Shown piece by piece: positions 11,805 through 23,442 of a stretch of 64,000 nucleotides of DNA. A model generated the notes under the pieces. It made no database searches. It had not been told where the DNA came from and saw nothing but the letters and a program-made list of their open reading frames with translations. Origin of the DNA: Gammaproteobacteria bacterium (GTDB lineage: Bacteria; Pseudomonadota; Gammaproteobacteria; Ga0077554; Ga007554); the NCBI GenBank assembly GCA_016191235.1, contig JACPOZ010000030.1:3924-67923 (forward strand), read 5' to 3'. Position numbers and translations under genes: made by a program. Position 1 is the first letter of the stretch; every line of letters begins with the position of its first letter.

Positions 11805-11919
11805 GCGTGTGACGATGCGTTAATCCTAAAAACTCAGTCATCCACGAAAGTCACAAAAAAACACGAAAATATTCAAATACATATCGCGATATTACTTGCC
11901 ACCCATCCGGTGAATTGCT

Positions 11920-12190
11920 AAAGCAATCCATGTTTTTGTCTACTCGCTGGTAGTCGATCCGGCCTGTCAAGGCCGCGGCATCGCCCGCGGCCTGCTCGAA
12001 GCCGCCGAACAGGCCGCCGCCGCAAAGGGCTGCATCACCATGCGCCTGGAGGTGCGCGCCGACAACGAGGCGGCCATACGGCTGTACTGCAAGGCCGGCT
12101 ACCGGACGGGCGAGTCGACAATTATTACGACGATGGAATGGCCGCGCAGCGGCTGCGCAAATCCATTGCCTTTGCCGACAATCCCCCGTA
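11920..12190 (+). pseudogene. GNAT (RimI-like) N-acetyltransferase remnant: 5'-truncated and frameshifted
   Basis: Only the C-terminal half of a GNAT fold remains (VYSLVVDPACQGRGIARGLLEAAEQAAAAKGCITMRLEVRADNEAAIRLYCKAGYR). The RimI-like tail (RVDNYYDDGMAAQ) continues in another frame near 12115. No N-terminal half or start codon is present. Confidence 0.55.
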
Positions 12191-12212
12191 ACCCTCACGG
12201 CCACTTTCGAGA

Positions 12213-12929
12213 TCAATAAGCCCAGTCCTCGTGTCTAACCGGCAGCCTATTCAGCTCATCCTTGTAGAACCGCCATTTCGGCATGAACTGATCCATCAAG
12301 GTTATGAAGCGCGCGTTATGCGTGCGCTCCAGCAAGTGAACCATCTCATGCACGACAATGTATTCGAGGCATTCGAGAGGCTTCTTTGTCAGTTCAGTAT
12401 TGAGGCGGATGCTTTTGGAGATTTTGCTACAGCTGCCCCACTTGGTTTTCATCCTTTGCACGAAGAATCTCTCCACCTTCACGCCCATGAGCGGTTCCCA
12501 TTTCGCGACCAACGGTAAGACTGCTTCTTTGAGCTTCTCTCGATACCAAGCATCCAGGACCTCTTGTTTCCGTTCATCACTGGTTTTCGGGCGAAGCTGA
12601 AGGATCATCCTGTTATGCTTTAGCTCGACTACTGGAGCCGCGTCCTTCTCGAGCACTTTGAGCAGGTAGCGCTTTCCCCAAACGTAATGGCTTTCGCGGT
12701 CGAGGTATTCGCGAGGTGTTTCCCGCTGCTGTTCACGCAACTTCTTTTGCTGGCTTTTGATCCAGCTGAGTTTGGTGATGGCAAAAATGCGAATAGTATC
12801 CAGGTCCATCCGCAATGGTGCGGAAATTCGCACCTTACCAGCCGGTGGATAGACGCTCAGGTGGATGTTCTTGATGTCCTTCTTCACCACGTCCACGGTA
12901 ATCTCACCCAGATTGATCTGCGTGACCAT
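12213..12929 (-). CDS. M48/DUF45 (YgjP-like) zinc metallopeptidase coupled to hsdR
   Basis: 238 aa with HEMVH (HExxH) in IVVHEMVHLLERTHNARF. Its start codon overlaps the hsdR stop by 1 nt. This family is recurrently encoded next to type I R subunits. Confidence 0.7.
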   Translation of the reverse strand: MVTQINLGEITVDVVKKDIKNIHLSVYPPAGKVRISAPLRMDLDTIRIFAITKLSWIKSQQKKLREQQRETPREYLDRESHYVWGKRYLLKVLEKDAAPVVELKHNRMILQLRPKTSDERKQEVLDAWYREKLKEAVLPLVAKWEPLMGVKVERFFVQRMKTKWGSCSKISKSIRLNTELTKKPLECLEYIVVHEMVHLLERTHNARFITLMDQFMPKWRFYKDELNRLPVRHEDWAY

Positions 12930-15900
12930 CAGTATTCCTTCTGCTGCTTGATGATAAGGAATATGCGCTCGACCTCGGCCATATCCTTCAGCACCTCATA
13001 TAGGGCGGTCTTGATGACATTCTCCTTGGCTTGAACGCCGCGCCAGCCGTCGGGCCGAGTGCGTTTGACGGCTTCCTCGATCCTGACAACCAGATTAAGC
13101 ACATCGTCTTTCGCGGTATCTCCATACGAAGCGGAAGGCTCAGCCACACAACTCACGCTGCCGGAAGCGGCCCCCTGCTTGAGATTGTTATAGAGGGCGC
13201 GGCGTCCCGGCGTATTCATCTGCTCTGGCGTATCTTCGGCCTGACCAGCATCCACTTTCTTCGCCAGCTCGGCAATCCGTTTCAGGTAGTCCTCATACTC
13301 GATAGCCTTCGCCTTGCGCGCGGCGATGATCTCATCCAGCAGCGCCGACATTTTCTCGTAGTAGGCCGGGTCGTTGAGGTGTTCCTTGATGATCTTGCTG
13401 CGGACGTTGTTCTCGATGGTTTCGGCAACGGCATCCTTGTTGCCCTTGAACCCATTCGGCAGGCTGTTGATCGCATTCGCGATGCCGGTTTTCACGATCA
13501 GCTCAAGCAACGGCATGTCGTCGAAGGGGGAAATCTTGCGCGGTTCGTCGGCTTCGATGTAGGTGTCGATGAGATGGCGCATGTCGGCCTCGTAGGCCTT
13601 GAGGTCGAGCGTCTCGCCACTGGCTTTGCGGATGATTTCGCGCACGTTCAGGTAGTGGTCGAGTTGCCGCTTGATGCGTGTGATGTCGGCAGGGCTATAG
13701 CCGGCCTTGTCCAGTTCGTCGGCGATGTTGGCGTAGGCGCGCACCAGCGCAACGGCCGCCTTGTAGAGCGCCGAACGCTGCGGTTCCCGCTCCTTCAGGT
13801 CGGAGGCAATCTCGGTGTTGCCGCAGAAGTAATGGATATGCTCGAGCTCACCCTTCGGCGGCGCCACCGGCTCGCACAGCAGTGCCAAGGTCTCCAGTGC
13901 GTTGTCGAGGCGTTCCTTGCCCTTCGTCAGACGATCCTGCAGCAACACTTCCGGATCAGGCCCACCGGCGCTGTGATCCAGTTCGGAGGTGTAGACCGCA
14001 ATGGCGTTCTCGACCTTCTTGAACAGGTCCTTGTAGTCCACGATGTAGCCGAAGTCCTTGTCCTCGCCGTCGAGACGGTTGACGCGGCAGATCGCCTGAA
14101 ACAGGCCGTGGTCCTGCATCGATTTGTCGATGTAAAGATAAGTGCAGGGCGGTGCGTCGAAGCCGGTGAGCAGCTTGTCCACCACGACCAGCAACTTCAT
14201 GTTCGCCGGTTCCTTGGTAAACAGGTCTTTGGCCCGCTCCTCGTAGATTTCCGTTTTGTTCATGCCCGGCCTGGCGTCGACATCCTTCAGCAGTTCGTTA
14301 TAGGTGTTGTAGATAAACTGCTTACCGGTCTCGGTGTTAGCGCCGGTTTCCTCCAGCGTCACGTCTCGGGCCAGCGGGTTGTAAGAGGTCACCACCGCAC
14401 ATCTGCCCTTGAATGGCGTCTTCTGGAACAGGGTGAAATACTTGCACGCCTCATAGATGCTCGATGCCACCAGGATAGCGTTGCCGCGCTCGCTGGACAG
14501 GCGCGGTTTGACACTGAAGTCGAACACAATGTCTGCCACCACCCGGTCCATGCGCGACTTGGAACTGAGCACGTGCTGCAACGTGCCCCACTGATTCTTT
14601 AGCTCGGCCTTCTGCCAATCGTTAAGCGCTTTGGTTTTGGCTTCGAACCAAGCGTCGATCTTGGCCTGCGATCCCAGGTGCTGATCGATGTCACGCGCCT
14701 CGTAAACGAGGTCGAGCACCACCCCGTCCTCCACTCCCTCACTGAACTTATAGGTATGAATGTAACCACCGAACACCTCCAGGCTGGTCTGTTTATCTTT
14801 CTTCAACAGCGGCGTGCCGGTAAAGCCGATGAATACCGCGTTGGGCATCATCGCCTTCATCACCCGATGCAGCTTGCCGCCTTGTGTACGGTGGCATTCG
14901 TCCACGAACACAAACACCTCACCCATGGTCTGGCTCGGCTGCGCTTCCAGCTCCCTGATAAAGGCATCGAAATCATCCACATCGCGGCGGCCAAACTTGT
15001 GCACCAGGGAGCAGAGCAGGCGCGGCCTGGCCTGACCGAGCTGGCTCATCAGCTCGCGCCCACTGCCGGTGCGTTTGATCGCCTCGCCCGCCTCGGTGAA
15101 GACGCGCTCGATCTGTTTGTCCAGTTCATCGCGGTCGGTGATGATGGCAACGCGGGCGTTGGGGTTGTTCTCCAGAATCCACTTCGCCAGCAGCACCATC
15201 ACAATGCTCTTACCGCTGCCCTGGGTGTGCCAGATGATGCCGCCCTTGCGCTGACGCACATGCTCCTGCGCTGCCTTGATGCCGAAATACTGATGCACAC
15301 GCGGCAGCTTCTTCACGCCACTATCGAAGAGCACGAAATCGTGCATCAGCTCGATCAACCGCTTCTTCTCGCACAGCTTGAGCAGATACTTGTCCAGCTT
15401 GAAGCGGCTGTTGTCCTGCTCATCCTCCTTCCACTTGAGGAAATACTTCTCCTGCGTACCGATGGTGCCATATTGCAGCCCCTCGGAATCATTACCAGCG
15501 AAGATGAACTGCACGGTGCTGAAGAACCACTCGTTGAACTCAGGCAGTTGATTGGACAAACTCTGGCGGATGCCATCACCAATGGAGGCACGGCTGTTCT
15601 TCAGCTCCAGCACGCCGATGGCGATGCCGTTCACATACAGCACGAGATCCGGCCGCCGCTCAAAATTGCCCTTGAGCGTCACCTCCTCGGCGATGGCGAA
15701 ATCATTTTTCTCCGGCTCATTCCAGTTGATGAGGCGGACACTCTCCGTCACCTTACCCACCTCAACTTTCACCGGCACGCCGTAGCGCAGCAGGTTGTAA
15801 ACAGAGTGATTGTTGCCGTAGAGCGTGCGGTTGTGGTTGTCCGCCTCGGTGCGCAGCTTGTGCAGCGCCACGCTGATCTGCGCCGGGGTGTAGCCGCTTT

Positions 15901-16051
15901 TTGTCAGCCACGCACTGAGCAGACTTTCCTCGACGTTGCTGTTGCCATCGCGGTCGGTCCAGTCGCCGAGGTAGCGATAACTTAGCTCATCGCGGAAAAG
16001 TGCGATGACTCGGTTCTGCGTCTCGCGTTCGGGTTGGCCGACATAATTCAT
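12929..16051 (-). CDS. hsdR: type I restriction enzyme R subunit (HsdR)
   Basis: 1040 aa with an N-terminal endonuclease region, SF2 helicase motifs (TGSGKS-like WHTQGSGKS, DEAH-like VFVDECHR) and a C-terminal helical domain. Confidence 0.9.
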   Translation of the reverse strand: MNYVGQPERETQNRVIALFRDELSYRYLGDWTDRDGNSNVEESLLSAWLTKSGYTPAQISVALHKLRTEADNHNRTLYGNNHSVYNLLRYGVPVKVEVGKVTESVRLINWNEPEKNDFAIAEEVTLKGNFERRPDLVLYVNGIAIGVLELKNSRASIGDGIRQSLSNQLPEFNEWFFSTVQFIFAGNDSEGLQYGTIGTQEKYFLKWKEDEQDNSRFKLDKYLLKLCEKKRLIELMHDFVLFDSGVKKLPRVHQYFGIKAAQEHVRQRKGGIIWHTQGSGKSIVMVLLAKWILENNPNARVAIITDRDELDKQIERVFTEAGEAIKRTGSGRELMSQLGQARPRLLCSLVHKFGRRDVDDFDAFIRELEAQPSQTMGEVFVFVDECHRTQGGKLHRVMKAMMPNAVFIGFTGTPLLKKDKQTSLEVFGGYIHTYKFSEGVEDGVVLDLVYEARDIDQHLGSQAKIDAWFEAKTKALNDWQKAELKNQWGTLQHVLSSKSRMDRVVADIVFDFSVKPRLSSERGNAILVASSIYEACKYFTLFQKTPFKGRCAVVTSYNPLARDVTLEETGANTETGKQFIYNTYNELLKDVDARPGMNKTEIYEERAKDLFTKEPANMKLLVVVDKLLTGFDAPPCTYLYIDKSMQDHGLFQAICRVNRLDGEDKDFGYIVDYKDLFKKVENAIAVYTSELDHSAGGPDPEVLLQDRLTKGKERLDNALETLALLCEPVAPPKGELEHIHYFCGNTEIASDLKEREPQRSALYKAAVALVRAYANIADELDKAGYSPADITRIKRQLDHYLNVREIIRKASGETLDLKAYEADMRHLIDTYIEADEPRKISPFDDMPLLELIVKTGIANAINSLPNGFKGNKDAVAETIENNVRSKIIKEHLNDPAYYEKMSALLDEIIAARKAKAIEYEDYLKRIAELAKKVDAGQAEDTPEQMNTPGRRALYNNLKQGAASGSVSCVAEPSASYGDTAKDDVLNLVVRIEEAVKRTRPDGWRGVQAKENVIKTALYEVLKDMAEVERIFLIIKQQKEY

Positions 16052-16099: not shown

Positions 16100-17260
16100 T
16101 CAGTTGTCCGCCCTATTCAGCGCTGAGGGGATAAATCCCTCATCTGACAGGGCGCGAACCACGCCACGTATCAGGTAGTTATTGCTGAAACCGATGGTGT
16201 ACTGGCGCGCCCCTTCATTGATGGGTTGCAACATTTTTCGTTCCACCAATTTTTTGATTTGATAAGTACGCTGGGCGGGCGACATCCCCGGCATGGCAGC
16301 GGCCAGATCGGCCGCCTTGGCCACGCCACTTTTGGCAGCGATGTGCAACACGGACTCTTCCATCGCCGTGATGAGCTCTCGTTCTTTGGCATATGAAAGT
16401 GCAGGGGCAAGAATTTTGTCGCCCAAGTAGCCAAAGTCAGTGAGCCGATCTACTTTGCGCAATGCGTCCAGGATGCCTCGCAATACATATATGCACCATG
16501 CCTCCATCCCATCTGCGGCGCCGGAGTCGGCGCGCGCCAACATGGCGTAATACTGATCGCGGTTATTGCAGAACACGGCTGTTGGATTCAACACCCTGCC
16601 GCCGGTCTTCACATTGAAGCCGTACTTGATCAACAGGGCGTAGGTCAGCAGCCGCACCACGCGGCCATTGCCGTTGCCAAACGGGTGTATCCAGCCAAAA
16701 CGGTGGTGCGCCAGCGCCACCTTGATGAGGTCATATTTTGGGGGATGCTTTTCGTTGATGAACGCCACCAGCTCCTGCATGTAGTGCGGCACCTGGATGA
16801 ATTCGGGCGGCAAGTGTTCCGCCTGCGCAATCTTTACGGACTTCTGCCGGTAAGCCCCCGGCGTGGCGTCCCCCTCGCGTTCCAGCCCTTTTACCGTGAT
16901 GGCGTGCAGCTCGCGGATGAAGTGCTCAGTTAGCCCGTCGCCGGGCTGAATGCGCTCCTCGATGTAGGCCATGGCGGCTTCGATATTTTCCATTTCACGA
17001 AGCTGGTCAGAGGACGCGGGGGCGCCCTCCAGCTTGCTTTCCACATAGTCGGCCAATGTGGTGTGATTCCCCTCGATACGGGCCGATCCCAGGCTTTCCA
17101 GCATGTGAAAGATACCCTTGAGCTGAAAAAAGACCGGCGCCGGGGTGGTGCCGTGCAATTGCAGGCGGCGCAGGTGTTCCAGCTCCGTCAAAACGTCCAC
17201 CAGCGGGGAGTCAAACGACGGATTGAGCAAGGTCAGATCATGATGGCTAAATACAGGCAT
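16100..17260 (-). CDS. Fic/DOC family protein
   Basis: 386 aa carrying the Fic motif region [12 protein letters not shown] (HxFx[D/E]GNGRxxR with Asn in place of Asp/Glu) and a C-terminal winged-helix-like tail. Located between hsdS and hsdR. Confidence 0.8.
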
Positions 17261-17325
17261 GGCGATATTTATCTGTAATGGCGGAGACGGATTATCTTTA
17301 ATTTACACAGAGTTTATTCTTGAAA

Positions 17326-17379
17326 TCAACAAATTGCACCATAAAAATTGAAATGCTATCTTGAAATCACTCGGAGGGC
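17326..17379. promoter_or_regulatory. AT-rich putative promoter/operator region upstream of fic, with a direct repeat CTTGAAATCA(A/C)
   Basis: Two copies of TCTTGAAATCA about 40 bp apart in the hsdS-fic intergenic region. A GAGGGC...GCCCTC hairpin (17381-17403) follows. Confidence 0.3.
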
Positions 17380-17447
17380 ATATTGACTGGCCCTCGTTGA
17401 TGAAGTCGAAATGCATGGCTGTCTGCTAGACAGGAAGACCGCCATGC

Positions 17448-18701
17448 TCACACCAGCCGTATCCTCCCGGTGAGCAGCTCCTGCATCATGCCCTGCTTGA
17501 GGCTGCGGGCCTTGGCGAGCTTGGCTTCCAGTGCGGCGAGTTCGGCGTCCATGTCGGAAAGGAGGGTGGCGATGGCGGTTTGTTCGGCTTTCGCAGGTAG
17601 CGTCACTTCAAAAGCAGCGAGCTGTGTCTTACCGATTTCAAGGAACGTGCTGCCACCGCACAGACTGATAAATCCCTGTTTTTTCATAAGTAGCAGGTAG
17701 TAGAGAAACTCCACATCCACATGATCGAACGGAATGAAGTTCTTGAAGCCCTGATTCGTGGAAACTGAGACGGTATTGATCGCGCACTCACCAATGGTGG
17801 CTCGTGAGGTCATCACAATCGAGTTGGCCGGGATCATCTCGGCTGAACTGCTTTTCAGACCCAGTGACGAAATCTTGCGGCTAGTGTCGCTGATGTATTT
17901 GAAGCCGTTCAGCCCGGTAATATCGGTGGGCGTACACCAGGGAATGTCCCCATCCCAAAACTGCGGTTGTATCGTGCTTGGCGTTCCGCCGCTGCGAATG
18001 TTTGCCAACTCCCCCAACCGCTTCACCTCCCACTCCCCGCTGAAGCCCGGCAGGCGCTTCTTGCCGGTGAGCAGTTGCTGCATGGCGCCTTGTTTGAGGT
18101 GGCGTTTTTTGGCGATGAGTTGTGCCAGGGATTCGATGAGAGCATCCGCATCGCTCAACGCCTCGGCGATGGCTTCTTGTTCGGCTTTGGTGGGTGGGAG
18201 GACGAGGAATAGTCGTTTTAAGTTGTCTTGATTTATGTTCGTGTTGGCACTTACAGAACTTGCGCCAATCACCCGTCTCCTAAAGCCTTCCTCATAAAAG
18301 CAGTGTCTCTTAAAGCCGCGACTCAGAGTTCCACCATCTCGAAATCTGATCAAGAACCCTGAATACACGGTCTTTGGAAGATCTTCTTCGATGACCGCCG
18401 TTAGACCAACCCCGGAGGGTTTGACGGAGGACCTGATGAAAATCACATCACCTTTTCGGAGATCATATGTTTGTTGCTCTGCATGGTTTGTGTCCACAAG
18501 GCCGAGAGAATCGCTAGATGCAATGCTGGAAACGCCAAAAACATCCATGAGATTCACAAATGGTGAGCCATGGCCAAACGCTTCACTCCCCTTGTTGATA
18601 CCGTTCTTAAATTTGCCCACCTCACAAAGTTGGAAGATATTCCAATCCTCCGGAATCACCCCCACCTCGGTCTGCTTGTAGCCGGTCGGCATGTTATTCA
18701 T
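17448..18701 (-). CDS. hsdS: type I restriction-modification specificity subunit (HsdS), two target-recognition domains
   Basis: 417 aa. The conserved central spacer (LLTGKKRLPGFSGEWEVKRLGE) and C-terminal repeat (QGMMQELLTGRIRLV) flank two variable TRDs. Confidence 0.85.
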   Translation of the reverse strand: MNNMPTGYKQTEVGVIPEDWNIFQLCEVGKFKNGINKGSEAFGHGSPFVNLMDVFGVSSIASSDSLGLVDTNHAEQQTYDLRKGDVIFIRSSVKPSGVGLTAVIEEDLPKTVYSGFLIRFRDGGTLSRGFKRHCFYEEGFRRRVIGASSVSANTNINQDNLKRLFLVLPPTKAEQEAIAEALSDADALIESLAQLIAKKRHLKQGAMQQLLTGKKRLPGFSGEWEVKRLGELANIRSGGTPSTIQPQFWDGDIPWCTPTDITGLNGFKYISDTSRKISSLGLKSSSAEMIPANSIVMTSRATIGECAINTVSVSTNQGFKNFIPFDHVDVEFLYYLLLMKKQGFISLCGGSTFLEIGKTQLAAFEVTLPAKAEQTAIATLLSDMDAELAALEAKLAKARSLKQGMMQELLTGRIRLV

Positions 18702-19317
18702 CGTAGCCTCCCCGGTACGTCATGTTCCGTAGGGGCGACCGGCCGGTCGCCCCTACCCCGGTCGCCGGTACGTTATCCGGGTGCAATGTGTCCTCCGCCC
18801 AACGGCGTGGATTGTCGGCAACGTATTCGGCGATGCGGCGGTAATCGGCGGCGTCGCGGATGATGTGTTCGTAATAATTGCGTTGCCATACCGGCGCACC
18901 GGGGGATTGGCGGATTGCATTGATGCGTTTGGTGACAGCGGATTTGTAACCGGCCATCAATGCGCCGAGGGATTTCGATTGGGGGCCGGTGGGGGCGACT
19001 GGTGGGGCGACCCGCCGGTCGCCCGTACGGCCGGGCACGTCATTAGTAATGAGGACGATGGCGTGAAAATGATTAGGCATGATCACGTATTCGCCGAGTT
19101 CGATTTCTGCCCGGATTTCTGCTGACCGAAGCCATTCATCCGTCACAATCTGCCCGAATTCATTGGACTGCATCTCACCGTTCACGATTCCGCCGAACAG
19201 GCATTCGCGATCACAGGCGCAGATTGTCACGAAATAGCCGCCAGCCTGGGAGTAGTCATAATCTTTCAGACGGATCGAGCGGCGGTGGTGAATATCCCGG
19301 TTATAACGATTCATCAT
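18694..19317 (-). CDS. Y1 HuH transposase-like protein (IS200/RAYT-like, TnpA_REP family), translationally coupled between hsdM and hsdS
   Basis: 207 aa with N-terminal HRRSIRLKDYDYSQAGGYFVTICACDRECLFG, HuH motif MPNHFHAIVLI and a Tyr region VWQRNYYEHIIRD. It overlaps the hsdM stop by 4 nt and the hsdS start by 8 nt. Two GC-rich palindromes lie inside the CDS (18732-18753 and 19004-19025). Confidence 0.7.
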   Translation of the reverse strand: MMNRYNRDIHHRRSIRLKDYDYSQAGGYFVTICACDRECLFGGIVNGEMQSNEFGQIVTDEWLRSAEIRAEIELGEYVIMPNHFHAIVLITNDVPGRTGDRRVAPPVAPTGPQSKSLGALMAGYKSAVTKRINAIRQSPGAPVWQRNYYEHIIRDAADYRRIAEYVADNPRRWAEDTLHPDNVPATGVGATGRSPLRNMTYRGGYDE

Positions 19318-22233
19318 GCGAAACCCGTCTTCTTCAGGTGTTCGGCAGCCTTGCCCATTCCAAGCTCCAGCGCCTTCTGGGCATACCAGAGCCTGGTTTC
19401 CGGGTCGCTGAGTTTATCCAACAGGGTGAGATTGCTGCGCCAAGGCAATTGTGCAACGGTGCGTTGCACAATTGCCCGATCCGGCCAGGCATCTGCGAAT
19501 GTCCGCATGTACTTGAGGTTTCGCGGCGAGAATCCGGTCGTGCCGGGGAATGCGGTTTTCAAGTCATGGGAAATTACCTTCGCCCCCCACCCCTCCTGAT
19601 ACTGGCGTTCCAGAATGGATCGGCCGATGTCCCAATACATGAGTACCATGGCGGCATTGGCCGACAATACGGTTTTGATGCGCTCATGGGCTATGCGCTC
19701 TTTTATGTCGACTAAGAGTGTAGCGTAACCTTCAGGCATTGCGGCCAGGGTGTCGGGAACAGACATCAGCACGTCCGGTTTTGCCGTGCCACGGTTCTTG
19801 CGTCTGTCTGTCGGCTTGGCGACTTGATTCACCATCTGCGGCAGAGGGGTTTCGTAGCGTTCGGCCAACTCCTTCACGCGCTGGGTGAGCGCCTGGCTGA
19901 TGCGGTCCATCTCGCCGTGGATGGCGGCGGCGATGGCGGCCAGCCATTTATCTTCCACCACCAGCGTCTTGATCTCCGCCTCGGTGAGCGTGGGGTATTT
20001 GGCATAGGCCAGTGCGTCGAGCTTGGCCTCGGCGTCTTTCAGGGTTTTCTTGAGTTCAGCGTCCTGCGTGCTTAATTTCAGCCAAGCATTGAGGGCATGG
20101 GCCTCTTTCTTAGCCGCCTTGTCGCCTTTAATTTCTTTCAGGCGGGCGCTGACGTTGGCCTTGTTCACCTTGTCCAGCTCGGCAAACGCACCTTCTTCAC
20201 CGCCGTGTTCCTCTTCCAGTTCGGTCATCTGGGCGGCCACGCTTTCCAGCGCGGCCGCCTGCTGCGCGGTGAAGTAGCGATCCACGATGAGCGGTTTAGG
20301 TATAAGGTCGCAAGCCCAGCCTTTGTCCACTTCTTTGACTGTTTTGCCTTCCTTGTTTTTCTTGACTTCAATAACCCGGTAAGTCGTCGCCTTCCAGCCA
20401 TCTGAAGCGATCAGGTAACAATCGTCCTGCATGGTGGCAGCCCAATAGTCCATCAGGTGTTGATAGACGTCGTATTTATCAATCAGCGGCTGCGCCGTGT
20501 AGTGGGCGAGCAGGTCTTCAGCGAGCTCGTGGATGATATTTTTGGGGTGGCAACCTGCCTGCAAAGCCTTGAGCGTTTCACAACTGCGCTGTTGCCAGTC
20601 GGCAAACAGGGCATTCATGCTCTCGATGAAGCTGACGAACTCTGGATGCTGGTAGATGGTGGGCTTGATGGCTTGCTTGGAGACGGCCAGATCAAGGTAG
20701 CCGGGGCGCTTATCGGAAAGGTCGCGTAGCGAGACCGCGTCCCTCTCACCCGCTTGCGGAAGAGAGTTAGGAGAGAGGGGAACAGCTTTAAACAATGTCT
20801 TCCGAAGTCGTGGGCAAACATCCCAATACGGCTGCAAGGCATCCACGTCGGCTTTGGGGATGCCACCCTTCAGGTGCCCCTCGATGTCCTGAATATCTTC
20901 GACTTGCTGGCTGTCGATGTAGCGCGGGAGGTTGAGGTTGAATTCGTTCTTCTCGATCTCCTCGACGCTGACCATGCGCGAGTATTTGGGAATTTCCAGC
21001 CGCTTGTTGAAGGCATCGACGATCTGGTGAATGTCCATGTCGCGCAGGCGGTTCTTGGGGCCGTCCTTCATGTAGCCGCCGCTGGCGTCGATCATGAAGA
21101 TGCCCTTGCAGGTGTGGGCGTTTTCTTTGTCGATGACGATGATGCAGGCGGGAATGCCGGTGCCGTAGAACAGGTTGGCGGGCAGGCCGATAATGCCCTT
21201 GATGTAGCCTTTGCGGATGAGGTTCTTGCGGATGTCGGCCTCGGCATTGCCACGAAACAGAACGCCGTGCGGCAGAATGCAGGCGCCTTTGCCCGTGCTT
21301 TTCAGCGAGCGCACGATGTGCAGCAGGTAGGCGTAATCGCCTTGCTTGGCAGGTGGTGTGCCAAAATGTTGGAAGCGCTCGTGCGGATCGTTGAGCGGGT
21401 CGATGCCCGTGCTCCAGCGCTTGTCGCTGAAGGGCGGATTGGCAACGACGTAGTCGAAGGTTTTGAGCTGGCCATCCTCGCTTGTAAACAGCGGATTAGC
21501 CAGCGTATTGCCCTGCTTGATCAGCGCCGTTGGGTTGTTGTGCAGGATCATGTTCATGCGCGCCAGGCCAGAGGTGGCGGCGTCTTTCTCCTGCCCGTAA
21601 AGCGTGACCTTGGCTCTGGCTTCATCGCCCACTTTCAGCAGCAGCGAACCGGAACCGCAGGTCGGGTCATAAACAGTGGTATTGTTGCTGGTATGGGCAT
21701 CGTGAATGCCGATGATCTGCGCCATGATGCGGCTGACCTCGGCGGGTGTGTAGAACTGGCCCTTGCTCTTGCCACTCTCGGTAGCGAAGTGGCGCATCAG
21801 GTATTCATAAGCATCGTCCAGAATGTCATCGCCCTCCGCGCGGTTCTTTGAAAAGTCGAGCGCCTTGTTTTCAAAGATGGCGATCAGGTTGGTGAGCCGC
21901 TCTACAATTTCCGAGCCGCTGCCCAGCTTGCTGGGATCATTGAAGTCCGGCATGTCGGACAGCTTGTTGGCATTAGCCAGCGGCGCGATGATTTTCTTGT
22001 TGATCTGGTCACCGATGTCGGGCTTACCCTTTGAGCGCGACCATGTCCTTGAAGCTGGCACCTTCCGGGATGGTGATCGGTGCGAAAGGTACACCGGCGT
22101 ATTTGTCGCTGACGTACTTGATGAACAGCATGACCAGGACGTAGTCCTTGTATTGGCTGGCGTCCATGCCGCCGCGCAGCTCATCGCAACTGGACCAGAG
22201 GGAGAAATAGAGTTCGGATTTTTTCAGGGCCAT
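19314..22233 (-). CDS. hsdM: type I restriction-modification methyltransferase (HsdM) with an apparent +1 frameshift near 22028 (possible pseudogene or sequencing error)
   Basis: The N-terminal 69 aa (MALKKSELYFSLWSSCDELRGGMDASQYKDYVLVMLFIKYVSDKY...KDMVALKG) are in the frame 22024..22233. The rest of the N6-adenine methyltransferase (NPPF motif VVANPPFSDKRW, SAM-binding DPTCGSGSLL) continues in the 19314..22184 frame. The junction is at a GGG run (minus strand). Confidence 0.8.
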
Positions 22234-22629
22234 GTGGGTTTAAACGCTTTTTCTTTGATAGAAGTGCAGAAAAGTTGGGGGCGGGTGATTAAGCAGTACG
22301 ACGATTTTGGCTTATATCGAACAGCTTGTCATCTTTGTCGGGCATTGATTGTCAGGTATTAAATTAAATGAAAAAAGAAAGTCCGATTATGGCCGTTTTT
22401 CGACATGCGGGAGTCGACCCTGAGCAGATATTCAGTGGGGAAGTGACAGGGGCAATGGAATTTCAGGTAAGGCGCGACAGCGCCTCGGCGGTGAATCATT
22501 TACCTGGCGGTGGCTGTGGCTGGCATCTGATCGTTCATGCCTGCTATAATCAACCTGTTATTTTCTATCCATTTTGTGCATGGGCATGGCTGTGGTGACC
22601 TGCAGGCTGTGCGGCAAGGTGCTCTTAAA

Positions 22630-23442
22630 GTGTCAAAAAACAACGATGAGCCTATCGTAAAAATCCGCAGCTTGCGTTTCGCGCATGGGACCCGCGTGAT
22701 TTTTGACGGCGTGGACATCGACATCCCGCGCGGCAAGATTACCGCTATCATGGGTCCCAGCGGCACGGGCAAGACCACGCTGCTGAAACTGATCGGCGGT
22801 CAGTTGCAGCCCAATGCGGGCAGCGTCGTGGTGGACGGCGAGGACGTCAACAAAGTGTCCCGTGATGCGCTGTTCCGCTTGCGCAAGCGCATGAGCCTGT
22901 TGTTCCAGACCGGCGCGCTGTTTACCGATCTCACCGTATTCGAAAACGTGGCCTTTCCGTTGCGCGAGCACACCCGTTTGCCCGAGTCGATACTGCGCGA
23001 CCTGGTGCTGATGAAGCTGCAGGCGGTAGGTCTGCGCGGTGCACGCGACCTGCTGCCTGCCGAATTGTCGGGCGGCATGGCGCGGCGTGTGGCGCTGGCC
23101 AGGGCCATTGCGCTGGACCCGATGATGATTATGTACGATGAGCCCTTCACCGGCCAGGATCCGATCACTGTGGGCGTGATCATGCAGCTTATCCGTATGC
23201 TCAACGACACCTTGGGGCTGACCAGCATCATTGTTTCTCACGATGTGCATGAGTTGACGATGATTTGCGACCATATGTACATGATCTCGGGCGGCAAGGT
23301 GATGGGACACGGGACGCCCGATGATATGGCCCACTCGGAATCGGGCTGGGTGAGGCAGTTCATGTCCGGATTGCCGGATGGCCCGGTGCCGTTCCACTAT
23401 CCGGCGCCGGATTACGCCGACGATCTGTTGGCTGGGGCATAA
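22630..23442 (+). CDS. mlaF: phospholipid ABC transporter ATP-binding protein MlaF
   Basis: Walker A GPSGTGKTT, signature LSGGMARRVALARA and Walker B MIMYDEP. A GTG start at 22630 is proposed; the in-frame ATG at 22537 is also possible. Confidence 0.85.
   Translation: MSKNNDEPIVKIRSLRFAHGTRVIFDGVDIDIPRGKITAIMGPSGTGKTTLLKLIGGQLQPNAGSVVVDGEDVNKVSRDALFRLRKRMSLLFQTGALFTDLTVFENVAFPLREHTRLPESILRDLVLMKLQAVGLRGARDLLPAELSGGMARRVALARAIALDPMMIMYDEPFTGQDPITVGVIMQLIRMLNDTLGLTSIIVSHDVHELTMICDHMYMISGGKVMGHGTPDDMAHSESGWVRQFMSGLPDGPVPFHYPAPDYADDLLAGA

Follow-up and report, generated by a model that had tools for sequence, protein, structure and literature searches.

This report deals with an open reading frame (ORF) of 207 amino acids (aa) located at the junction of hsdM with hsdS in a type I restriction-modification (R-M) operon, in a stretch of 64,000 nucleotides (the window) from contig JACPOZ010000030.1 of a Gammaproteobacteria bacterium. 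Judged by its motifs and its predicted fold, the ORF is a tyrosine transposase of the type associated with repetitive extragenic palindromes (REPs), or RAYT, and it belongs to TnpA_REP subclass 2.4, which is Group 4 of Bertels. The gene with the palindromes in its coding sequence is of a known kind, i.e., a subclass 2.4 RAYT with in-gene double-foot REPs. The setting, a RAYT clade in a type I R-M operon with a captured hsdS start, appears to be unreported, and searches of the literature on RAYT with hsdS, hsdM or type I restriction, on IS200 with hsdS and hsdM, on COG1943 and on the REP-encoded peptides found no paper that describes this arrangement. We consider that the locus is probably a REPtron, that is, a RAYT with its own double-foot REPs, which has become fixed in, and travels with, a mobile defense operon. 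The features of the window are collected in Table 1.

The two ends of the RAYT gene are best understood by comparison with operons of the same R-M family that have no RAYT. Eighty metagenome operons of this family were sampled, and the junction between hsdM and hsdS was readable in 55-60 of them. In about 55, hsdM and hsdS abut and there is no RAYT; hsdM ends in ...MGFxW[KND]* and hsdS starts inside it (tcATGGAAGTGAagcccggctacaag -> MEVKPGYKQTEVGVIPEDW), the overlap being tcATGGAAGTGA and the hsdS start ATGGAAGTGA overlapping the hsdM stop. In a RAYT-bearing operon, L009 (L numbers designate homologous loci), the junction tcATGGTGAgccgatacaat has an hsdM that ends in ...GFSW* and a RAYT that begins MVSRYN on the ATG that formerly started hsdS. 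The junctions of L003, L010, L114 and the window (gcATGATGAatcg) are homologous to that of L009, as can be seen from the junction strings of the window (GCATGATGAATCG), L003 (ACGTGGTGAATCG) and L009 (TCATGGTGAGCCG) as compared to the native TCATGGAAGTGAAGCC. Aligned in this way, the RAYT start in all five operons falls exactly on the former coupled start of hsdS. The original prediction had the gene starting on the hsdM stop and ending on the hsdS start, and both overlaps are confirmed: the RAYT ATG (19317-19315) overlaps the upstream TGA (19316-19314), and its last codons with the TAA (18696-18694) overlap the hsdS ATG (18701-18699) by 8 nucleotides (nt).

The other end of the insert has given hsdS a different beginning. 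The N-terminus of HsdS is replaced in the RAYT-bearing operons (MNN.P.GYKQTEV... vs. MEVK..), and the hsdS leader has the same form in all clade members, REP-CTACGGAACrTGcc...GGGAGG-N5/6-ATGAATAAC. In the window a GGAGG at 18707-18711 stands 5 nt before the hsdS ATG. The replaced N-terminus and the conserved leader together imply that the RAYT took over the coupled start and that the 3' end of the insert supplies the new hsdS start. In four relatives (L002, L004, L006 and L089) the RAYT is separated from hsdM by extra DNA, which consists of DUF1016 remnants and additional REPs, and thus the ATGA overlap at the 5' end is kept only in part of the clade. We also considered whether the hsdS leader (REP-Shine-Dalgarno (SD)-ATGAAT) could be a duplicate of the RAYT's own 5' leader; this was rejected, as the sequences upstream of the RAYT are dissimilar.

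The layout is not peculiar to this genome. The order hsdM-RAYT-hsdS with the 8-nt overlap onto hsdS was found at every close homologue that was looked up (P0010, P0015, P0016, P0018 and P0028), and the identical layout is present in two metagenome-assembled genomes (MAGs) of Candidatus Competibacter (L009 and L010) and on two metagenome contigs (L089 and L114). The closest homologues share a tail, ...VGATGRSPLRNV..PGGxxE*, which is the REP plus GGAGG plus ATGAATAA in translation. A REP-plus-GGxxE* tail occurs in 15 of the top 125 protein clusters, the set used for all motif and tail counts, and the clade found at the junction comprises at least 15 protein clusters. Compared with the window, nucleotide identity is 71-84% for hsdM, 68-72% for the RAYT gene and 77-78% for hsdR, and the operons are homologous throughout. 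The ratio of non-synonymous to synonymous divergence (dN/dS) is 0.13-0.30 for the RAYT, 0.11-0.27 for hsdM and 0.12-0.16 for hsdR; synonymous sites are near saturation across the clade, and in unsaturated pairs the RAYT value is 0.20-0.21 (0.20 at a dS of 0.15). These values point firmly to an arrangement that is old and to an ORF that is under purifying selection and has diverged about as far as the genes of the operon. Therefore, the view that this is not a recent strain-specific insertion holds, with hsdM-RAYT-hsdS in at least 10 diverged operons.

The assignment of the ORF to the Y1 histidine-hydrophobic-histidine (HuH) proteins of the RAYT type, which had been made from the letters alone, is supported by motifs, a structure-database match and a predicted fold that agree with one another. 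More than 7900 homologues were found, and the residues H83, H85, W144, Q145, Y165, N169 and P170 are invariant in the alignment made. The HuH motif that had been pointed out is real (NH.H in 125 of the 125 top clusters), and the Y...NP motif is present in 122 of them. The catalytic tyrosine, however, had been placed in WQRNYYEH, which is in fact the conserved WQ motif. Alignment to E. coli TnpA_REP (PDB entry 4ER8), in which Y115 is the catalytic tyrosine and N119 a metal ligand (PMC3479197), puts it at Y165 in EYVADNP. The published signature of subclass 2.4 is NH[IFV]H + WQ + YIxNNP (PMC6006769); the ORF matches it with NHFH, WQRNYYEH and YVADNP, the last of which departs from the consensus at two non-conserved positions. 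4ER8 is the sole PDB sequence match of the family profile (E 1.7e-6). It is also the top PDB hit in Foldseek (E 1.5e-5) for the AlphaFold2 (AF2) model of the ORF (pLDDT 73, pTM 0.72), followed by the TnpAs of ISDra2, IS608 and IS200, all with probability 1.0 and TM scores of 0.4-0.6. The low-confidence parts of the model are the REP-encoded loop and tail. Two curated profile hidden Markov models (HMMs) do not reach their cut-offs on the ORF: Pfam PF01797 (Y1_Tnp) scores 18.8 against 23 bits and NCBIfam NF047646 (REP_Tyr_transpos) 60.8 against 80 bits. Other subclasses seem to underlie both models, and PF01797 is in fact assigned to some close homologues. Because these scores are below threshold, the family assignment rests on the motifs, the PDB profile match and the predicted fold.

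The two GC-rich palindromes that had been noticed in the reading frame are also real, since shuffled sequence is expected to give 0 matches. The exact palindrome at 18732-18753, GGGGCGACCGGCCGGTCGCCCC, is the core of the perfect 28-mer GTAGGGGCGACCGGCCGGTCGCCCCTAC, which sits 27 nt upstream of the hsdS ATG; the second one, at 19004-19025, differs from it at 2 positions and belongs to the stretch (19002-19030) that encodes the loop between HuH and Tyr, GRTGDRRVAPPVAPT. They are REP hairpins of the kind that RAYTs bind, as had been proposed, the 28-mer with perfect GTAG...CTAC feet. As a special feature of this gene, they do not stand, because palindromes of this sort are a published hallmark of subclass 2.4 (PMC6006769), in which the variable insertion between HuH and Tyr (beta3-alphaC) is an in-frame REP and the REPs are double-foot. 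Among 88 homologous loci, the set used for these counts, 54-60 have a hairpin between nt +240 and +330 of the gene, made up of GTAGGGGC, a variable stretch that is self-complementary, and GCCCCTAC, and many have a second REP at the gene's 3' end with an identical inner stem. In the window the gene lacks a 5' REP and has a degenerate internal one; most relatives have a perfect GTAGGGGC...GCCCCTAC hairpin at that position. For annotation purposes, palindromes in these coding sequences and tails of the form VGATGRSPLR...GGxxE are REP-encoded and are not new domains.

Nucleotide conservation of the 3' REP goes far beyond the demands of coding: the REP is identical at 28 of 28 positions in L002, L003, L004, L009, L010 and L114, while its flanks are 68-72% identical. 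Among 21 distinct 28-mers both sides have changed in 7 of 12 stem pairs; because this set was pre-selected as palindromes, its paired fraction is circular. In loci with a variant inner stem (GTATGG... in L006 and AATTCA... in L089) every REP of the locus varies alike. REP copies outside the gene are few in about 1 Mb of homologous loci, and the 78 operons of the family that have no RAYT (743 kb) contain none. Within the operon there are an in-frame REP insertion in hsdM of L002 (L002:6079-6106) and in-frame REPs with about 15 nt of flank in hsdS of L002 (9350-9400) and L089 (10778-10830), in both cases directly after the central conserved KRLPGF; these inserts have the inner stem specific to their own locus. 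Since REPs bracket target recognition domain (TRD) 1 and the central conserved region of hsdS in L002 and L089, RAYT/REP-mediated exchange of TRDs was considered, yet it is unsupported: in the near-identical L009, L010 and L114 the TRD breakpoints lie in conserved hsdS segments and not at a REP, as in ordinary recombination. A phase-variable hsdS shufflon was rejected for the same reason, and also because the window has one hsdS, with no second copy in its 64 kb. From the core of the RAYT to the 3' REP the sequence is variable and internally repetitive (GNGNIG..., VGATNVGAT...; L010:8600-8935, L114:2700-2960 and the tails of P0003, P0008, P0011 and P0018), and the length of this part differs between near-identical operons.

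The presence or absence of the RAYT within the family displays a patchy pattern. Only two of the 80 sampled metagenome operons, or two of the 55-60 with a readable junction, carry it (L089 and L114). Other RAYT-less relatives have different occupants in the same gap, for example, Fic (L112, L115 and L126), DUF1016 (L116) and other inserts. In five contigs (L001 and L169-L172) just 57 codons of hsdM are left and hsdS and hsdR have been deleted, while the RAYT and its REP are intact, with a ratio of non-synonymous to synonymous polymorphism (pN/pS) of 0.26. This remnant (L001:7755-8700 and its counterparts) lies between a GGDEF gene and mutS and consists of the 57-codon hsdM, a DUF1016 tail, the RAYT plus REP and ~60 nt from the beginning of hsdS. 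When L001 is compared with L169, the dS of the RAYT region is 0.04, and that of the flanking mutS, M16 peptidase and PNPase genes is 0.26-0.38; the low value suggests a recent transfer or conversion. A core component would be present in most operons and lost along with them; the RAYT is present in few and outlives the R-M genes, and thus the earlier description of it as an integral member of the operon was too strong. In the HsdM tree the RAYT-bearing operons occur in at least four places among RAYT-less ones, and their RAYTs form one clade. This combination would fit a junction cassette that has moved by homologous recombination between related operons.

Taken together, the following scheme is proposed. 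A REPtron would have settled where hsdM meets hsdS in a type I R-M operon, in which hsdM, the RAYT and hsdS would be read as one transcript and ribosomes would pass from hsdM to the RAYT and on to hsdS. On the minus strand no terminator-like site and no internal promoter match was found from hsdM to hsdS, and a search of Rfam over 17000-23000 gave no match at E <= 1. The RAYT presumably binds the GTAG-footed hairpins on single-stranded DNA (ssDNA) and maintains or copies them locally; in some relatives, REPs with locus-specific stems are found in hsdM and hsdS. The element would not be needed for restriction or modification, and it would persist because it is wired into the expression of hsdS and travels with a horizontally mobile, recombining defense operon. 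RAYTs are in general single-copy, vertically inherited and under selection, and to our knowledge no host function of a RAYT is known apart from the upkeep of REPs, which is itself presumed. A RAYT clade long held in a defense operon and wired to hsdM and hsdS offers a concrete setting for testing RAYT function or hitch-hiking. The case would be that of a selfish element that becomes difficult to lose once it has taken over the start site of a gene for an essential subunit; if it is a mere passenger, it is a well-documented example of an ordinary process.

RAYTs of this subclass are also found beside type I R-M genes that are unrelated to those of the window. The neighborhood scan covered the 80 best GTDB homologues of the ORF and their 135 immediate neighbors, which carry 155 Pfam families, the top ones being Methylase_S (5), N6_Mtase (4), and ResIII, DEAD and YchF-GTPase_C (3 each); PADLOC likewise ranked the S and M subunits of type I systems first. 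In nine of the 80 loci, which are dispersed in the RAYT tree, the direct neighbor is a type I gene in the same orientation; the enrichment this suggests may be inflated, as the loci were chosen for similarity to an R-M-embedded query. On an estimate of some three type I genes per few thousand genes, such a neighbor would be expected for about 0.2% of random genes. Apart from the window-type operons of Ca. Competibacter (L009 and L010), more distant RAYTs adjoin unrelated type I R-M genes in at least seven further loci: hsdM-RAYT-hsdS in an Anaerolineae genome (L014), hsdM-Fic-RAYT-hsdS in Nitrospira (L033), RAYT-hsdM-hsdS (L041), RAYT-hsdR (L032, L037 and L046) and RAYT-hsdS (L056). Tight overlaps recur in two of these, with hsdM and the RAYT sharing 14 nt and the RAYT and hsdS an ATGA in L014, and the RAYT and hsdR an ATGA in L037. 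The HsdR directly downstream of the RAYT in L032, a WOR-3 MAG, is of the EcoR124 type and has a GIY-YIG nuclease domain at residues 138-206 (L032:1145-4654). Another homologue (L178, the P0041 locus) lies in a stretch that resembles a defense island, with a 983-aa TIR_2 protein upstream and MazE-PIN and GmrSD (type IV restriction) downstream. A plasmid collection gave five weak matches, and the one inspected (H1, Leptolinea) does not adjoin R-M genes.

Several points weigh against a REPtron that simply rides in the operon. Type I R-M genes are the commonest immediate neighbors of subclass 2.4 RAYTs in the 80-genome sample, scattered cases included, and the recurring tight overlaps in L014 and L037 exceed what is expected of a one-off passenger, which may point either to a link in function or to strongly preferred insertion. 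There is no third palindrome or REP copy in the 64-kb window, and a REP population kept by this RAYT is therefore at most putative for this genome. The HsdM and RAYT trees were built by neighbor-joining and have no support values, and transcription as a unit, coupling and nuclease activity are all predictions made from the sequence.

The main alternative would make the RAYT an accessory with a function in type I R-M, or in defense in general, which has been recruited repeatedly, either as a hairpin- or ssDNA-directed nuclease arm or as a partner that acts on REP structures and affects HsdR translocation or hsdS expression. The neighbor counts, in which Methylase_S, N6_Mtase and ResIII/HsdR lead, the nine scattered loci, the overlapping ORFs in independent lineages, the purifying selection with invariant catalytic residues and the homologue in the TIR/MazE-PIN/GmrSD island all speak for such a role, and a defense-like role of RAYTs and REPINs has been a speculation of Bertels et al. 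(PMC5581495). We nevertheless think it unlikely, because the RAYT is at so few of the family's junctions and stays intact after the R-M genes are lost, because its position varies with the lineage (before hsdS, hsdM or hsdR), because some 70 of the 80 sampled members are in unrelated contexts with 155 neighbor families, and because several RAYT-bearing operons have a frameshifted hsdM or hsdR. The more specific proposal that subclass 2.4 RAYTs are repeatedly recruited and co-translated partners of type I R-M, with a hairpin or ssDNA activity or a REP-based control of hsdS, is quite unlikely; if true, this partnership would be the first case in which a RAYT is given a physiological role. A functional role of the RAYT in R-M is unproven. 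The original prediction's domesticated HuH enzyme survives in so far as a RAYT-type protein is under purifying selection; its domestication for R-M would be a conjecture. The independent recurrences beside other type I systems strengthen the locus as a test setting.

It is also improbable that the 3' REP is mainly an RNA or DNA regulatory element of hsdS, acting in mRNA stabilization or processing, in pausing or in coupling, and that the RAYT ORF is kept as a translated leader. The conservation of its 28 nt amid diverging flanks, its fixed spacing to the SD and ATG and the lack of internal promoter or terminator matches would agree with this. RNA folding, however, gives the REP as an isolated stem with the SD and the AUG outside it and no U-tract. 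Consequently, the REP was rejected as an intrinsic terminator or SD-sequestering hairpin, and there is no direct support for the suggestion that a hairpin controls hsdS translation. A weaker predicted stem, between CCGGGAGG (the SD) and CCGnCCGG in hsdS codons 5-8, was found in all five operons folded; with it hsdS initiation would depend on an upstream ribosome, and it is compatible with coupling. Since the same type of REP lies in or at the ends of RAYT genes in dozens of contexts outside R-M, the RAYT-REP relationship already explains the conservation. A leader role also leaves the selection on the whole RAYT protein, catalytic residues included, unexplained, and the independent R-M-linked RAYTs of L014 and L033 have no 3' REP. 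A recent strain-specific IS200-like insertion, or a decaying pseudogene of no lasting significance, is hardly credible and is refuted by the comparative data. The locus has indeed been rearranged, with a frameshifted hsdM and a foreign DUF1016 fragment upstream, and most operons of the family have no RAYT. However, the layout is shared by at least 10 operons whose synonymous divergence is saturated, the ORF is unbroken and has a dN/dS of about 0.2, the Y motif is of the RAYT type (Y-x3-NP) and not the IS200 type (Y[IV]ENQ), and no target-site duplications or insertion sequence (IS) ends were found around the ORF and no second copy in the window. Thus, a REPtron held in the operon probably remains the best explanation.

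The upstream gene, read earlier as hsdM, is not intact: it is frameshifted near 22030 (+1 A) and has a DUF1016 insert. The extra A, at ~22026-22034 on the minus strand (window CTCAAAGGG vs. L002 CTCAAGGG), leaves the first 69 hsdM codons in a frame other than that of the rest, and the upstream ORF as read in the window has 956 aa. The frameshift may mark a true pseudogene or a sequencing error. Similar splits occur in other RAYT-bearing operons (three in hsdM of L003, one in hsdR of L004, and one in hsdM and two in hsdR of L010); since L004 is a short-read (k141) assembly its frameshift is probably real, while some of the other frameshifted assemblies may be long-read and error-prone. The DUF1016 insert of ~470 nt is fused in frame at both junctions, with the order ...PLPQMVNQVA, DUF1016 residues ~5-150 and AAEHLKKTGFA*, as compared to ...ERYETPxPQ, ~20 aa and HLxKMGFxW* in relatives without it. 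In L116, a relative with no RAYT, a full DUF1016 gene separates hsdM from hsdS, and its N-terminus is 81% identical to the fragment of the window. The hybrid of DUF1016 and hsdM tail could be the scar of the recombination that moved the junction cassette between related operons. Within the fragment is a perfect hairpin, GGCAATTGTGCAACG-GTG-CGTTGCACAATTGCC, which persists in the hsdM-RAYT spacers of L089 and, in degenerate form, L002. The deletion endpoint in L001 is ~5 nt from this hairpin.

As for the rest of the operon, the window hsdR product is 80% identical to that of L002 in a single frame, and the YgjP-like gene also comes after hsdR in homologous operons. A 121-aa ORF with no Pfam match (11851-12216, minus strand) lies between topA and the YgjP-like gene, the end of which it overlaps by 4 nt. 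The operon is flanked by dprA-smg-topA on one side and mla-like genes on the other, and no genomic-island signs (tRNA or GC shift) were seen around it.

Table 1. Features of the window (positions are those of the 64,000-nt stretch)
Feature	Positions	Strand	Basis or remark
YgjP-like metallopeptidase gene, last gene of the operon	12213..12929	-	Pfam YgjP-like, E 8.5e-60
hsdR, 1040 aa, intact	12929..16051	-	Pfam HSDR_N, SWI2_SNF2, T1R_D3-like
Fic/DOC family gene, between hsdS and hsdR	16100..17260	-	Pfam Fic, E 6e-19
hsdS, 417 aa, single copy	17448..18701	-	Pfam Methylase_S, E 4e-42
RAYT / TnpA_REP subclass 2.4 gene, 207 aa, ATG start	18694..19317	-	ORF list, homologues, PDB match, fold
New hsdS start, SD GGGGAGG (18707-18713) + ATG (18701-18699), within last RAYT codons	18699..18713	-	Conserved in clade
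3' double-foot REP, perfect 28-nt, in frame in C-terminal tail (VGATGRSPL)	18729..18756	.	Palindrome scan
Catalytic Tyr motif Y165-V-A-D-N169-P170	18808..18825	-	Aligns with 4ER8 Y115-IYI-N119-P120
WQ motif WQRNYYEH	18865..18888	-	Aligns with IWQPRFWEH of 4ER8
Internal REP, degenerate, in frame in HuH-Tyr loop (encodes TGDRRVAP)	19002..19030	.	Palindrome scan, homologous position
HuH motif N82-H83-F84-H85	19063..19074	-	Invariant in alignment; aligns with 4ER8 HuH
ATGA overlap, upstream ORF stop / RAYT start	19314..19317	-	Homologous to the original hsdM/hsdS coupled junction
hsdM with +1 frameshift near 22030 and DUF1016 fragment in tail	19314..22233	-	Pfam N6_Mtase, E 2e-100; TIGR00497
DUF1016 (YhcG-like) gene fragment, in frame in hsdM tail	19350..19817	-	PF17761, E 5e-32
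Perfect 15+3+15 hairpin in DUF1016 fragment	19444..19476	.	Palindrome scan
Sigma-70-like promoter match upstream of hsdM	22304..22332	-	Consensus match alone; sole one on the operon strand

Among known systems, the IS200/IS605 TnpAs (IS608 and ISDra2) have the HUH/Y1 fold in common with the ORF and work by a hairpin-dependent mechanism on ssDNA. The ORF has none of their Y[IV]ENQ motif, however, and no 5' hairpin and no tnpB were found with it in the 64 kb; unlike these elements, the gene is inherited with the operon. The E. coli TnpA_REP (YafM, 4ER8; subclass 2.2), which recognizes a GTAG-footed hairpin, aligns at the HuH, WQ and Tyr/Asn motifs at ~15% identity. Arrays of bacterial interspersed mosaic elements (BIMEs) and REPs, with hundreds of genomic copies, lie on either side of the E. 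coli gene, which has no in-gene REP and no R-M context and the REP stems of which are different and bulged.

Accessory genes in the gaps of type I R-M operons are familiar, e.g., Fic/DOC, DUF1016/YhcG and RhuM, and PrrC is another. The junction as a hot spot is common to them and the RAYT, and in the window Fic itself lies between hsdS and hsdR. In the literature searched, no Y1 HUH or RAYT gene is reported among such passengers, and the RAYT differs from them by bringing its own nucleic-acid hairpins and a replaced hsdS start. With regard to translation, hsdM and hsdS of EcoKI are translationally coupled (Roer et al. 2012, PMC3510504), and the RAYT-less relatives show the classical stop/start overlap of the two genes. 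The RAYT-bearing operons likewise have overlaps, at both new junctions; they differ in that a third, unrelated ORF would be a link in the predicted coupling chain.

Intragenic REPs that are GTAG-tagged, in frame and tolerated in loops and termini have been described by Di Nocera et al. (2013, BMC Genomics 14:522), and the same is true here, except that our intragenic REPs are confined to the RAYT and its host operon and their inner stems change in concert within each locus. The closest match is TnpA_REP subclass 2.4 (Quentin et al. 2018, BMC Genomics 19:475; Bertels et al. 2017, GBE 9:2110), with which the ORF shares the motifs, the in-frame loop REP, the GC-rich GTAG...CTAC stems, the REP at the end of the gene and a wide taxonomic spread over Chloroflexota, Cyanobacteria, Nitrospirota and Proteobacteria. 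In the published descriptions the members of this subclass are stand-alone, REP-flanked genes, and the word "restriction" is absent from the text of Quentin et al. (PMC6006769), whereas the clade described here lies inside a type I R-M operon.

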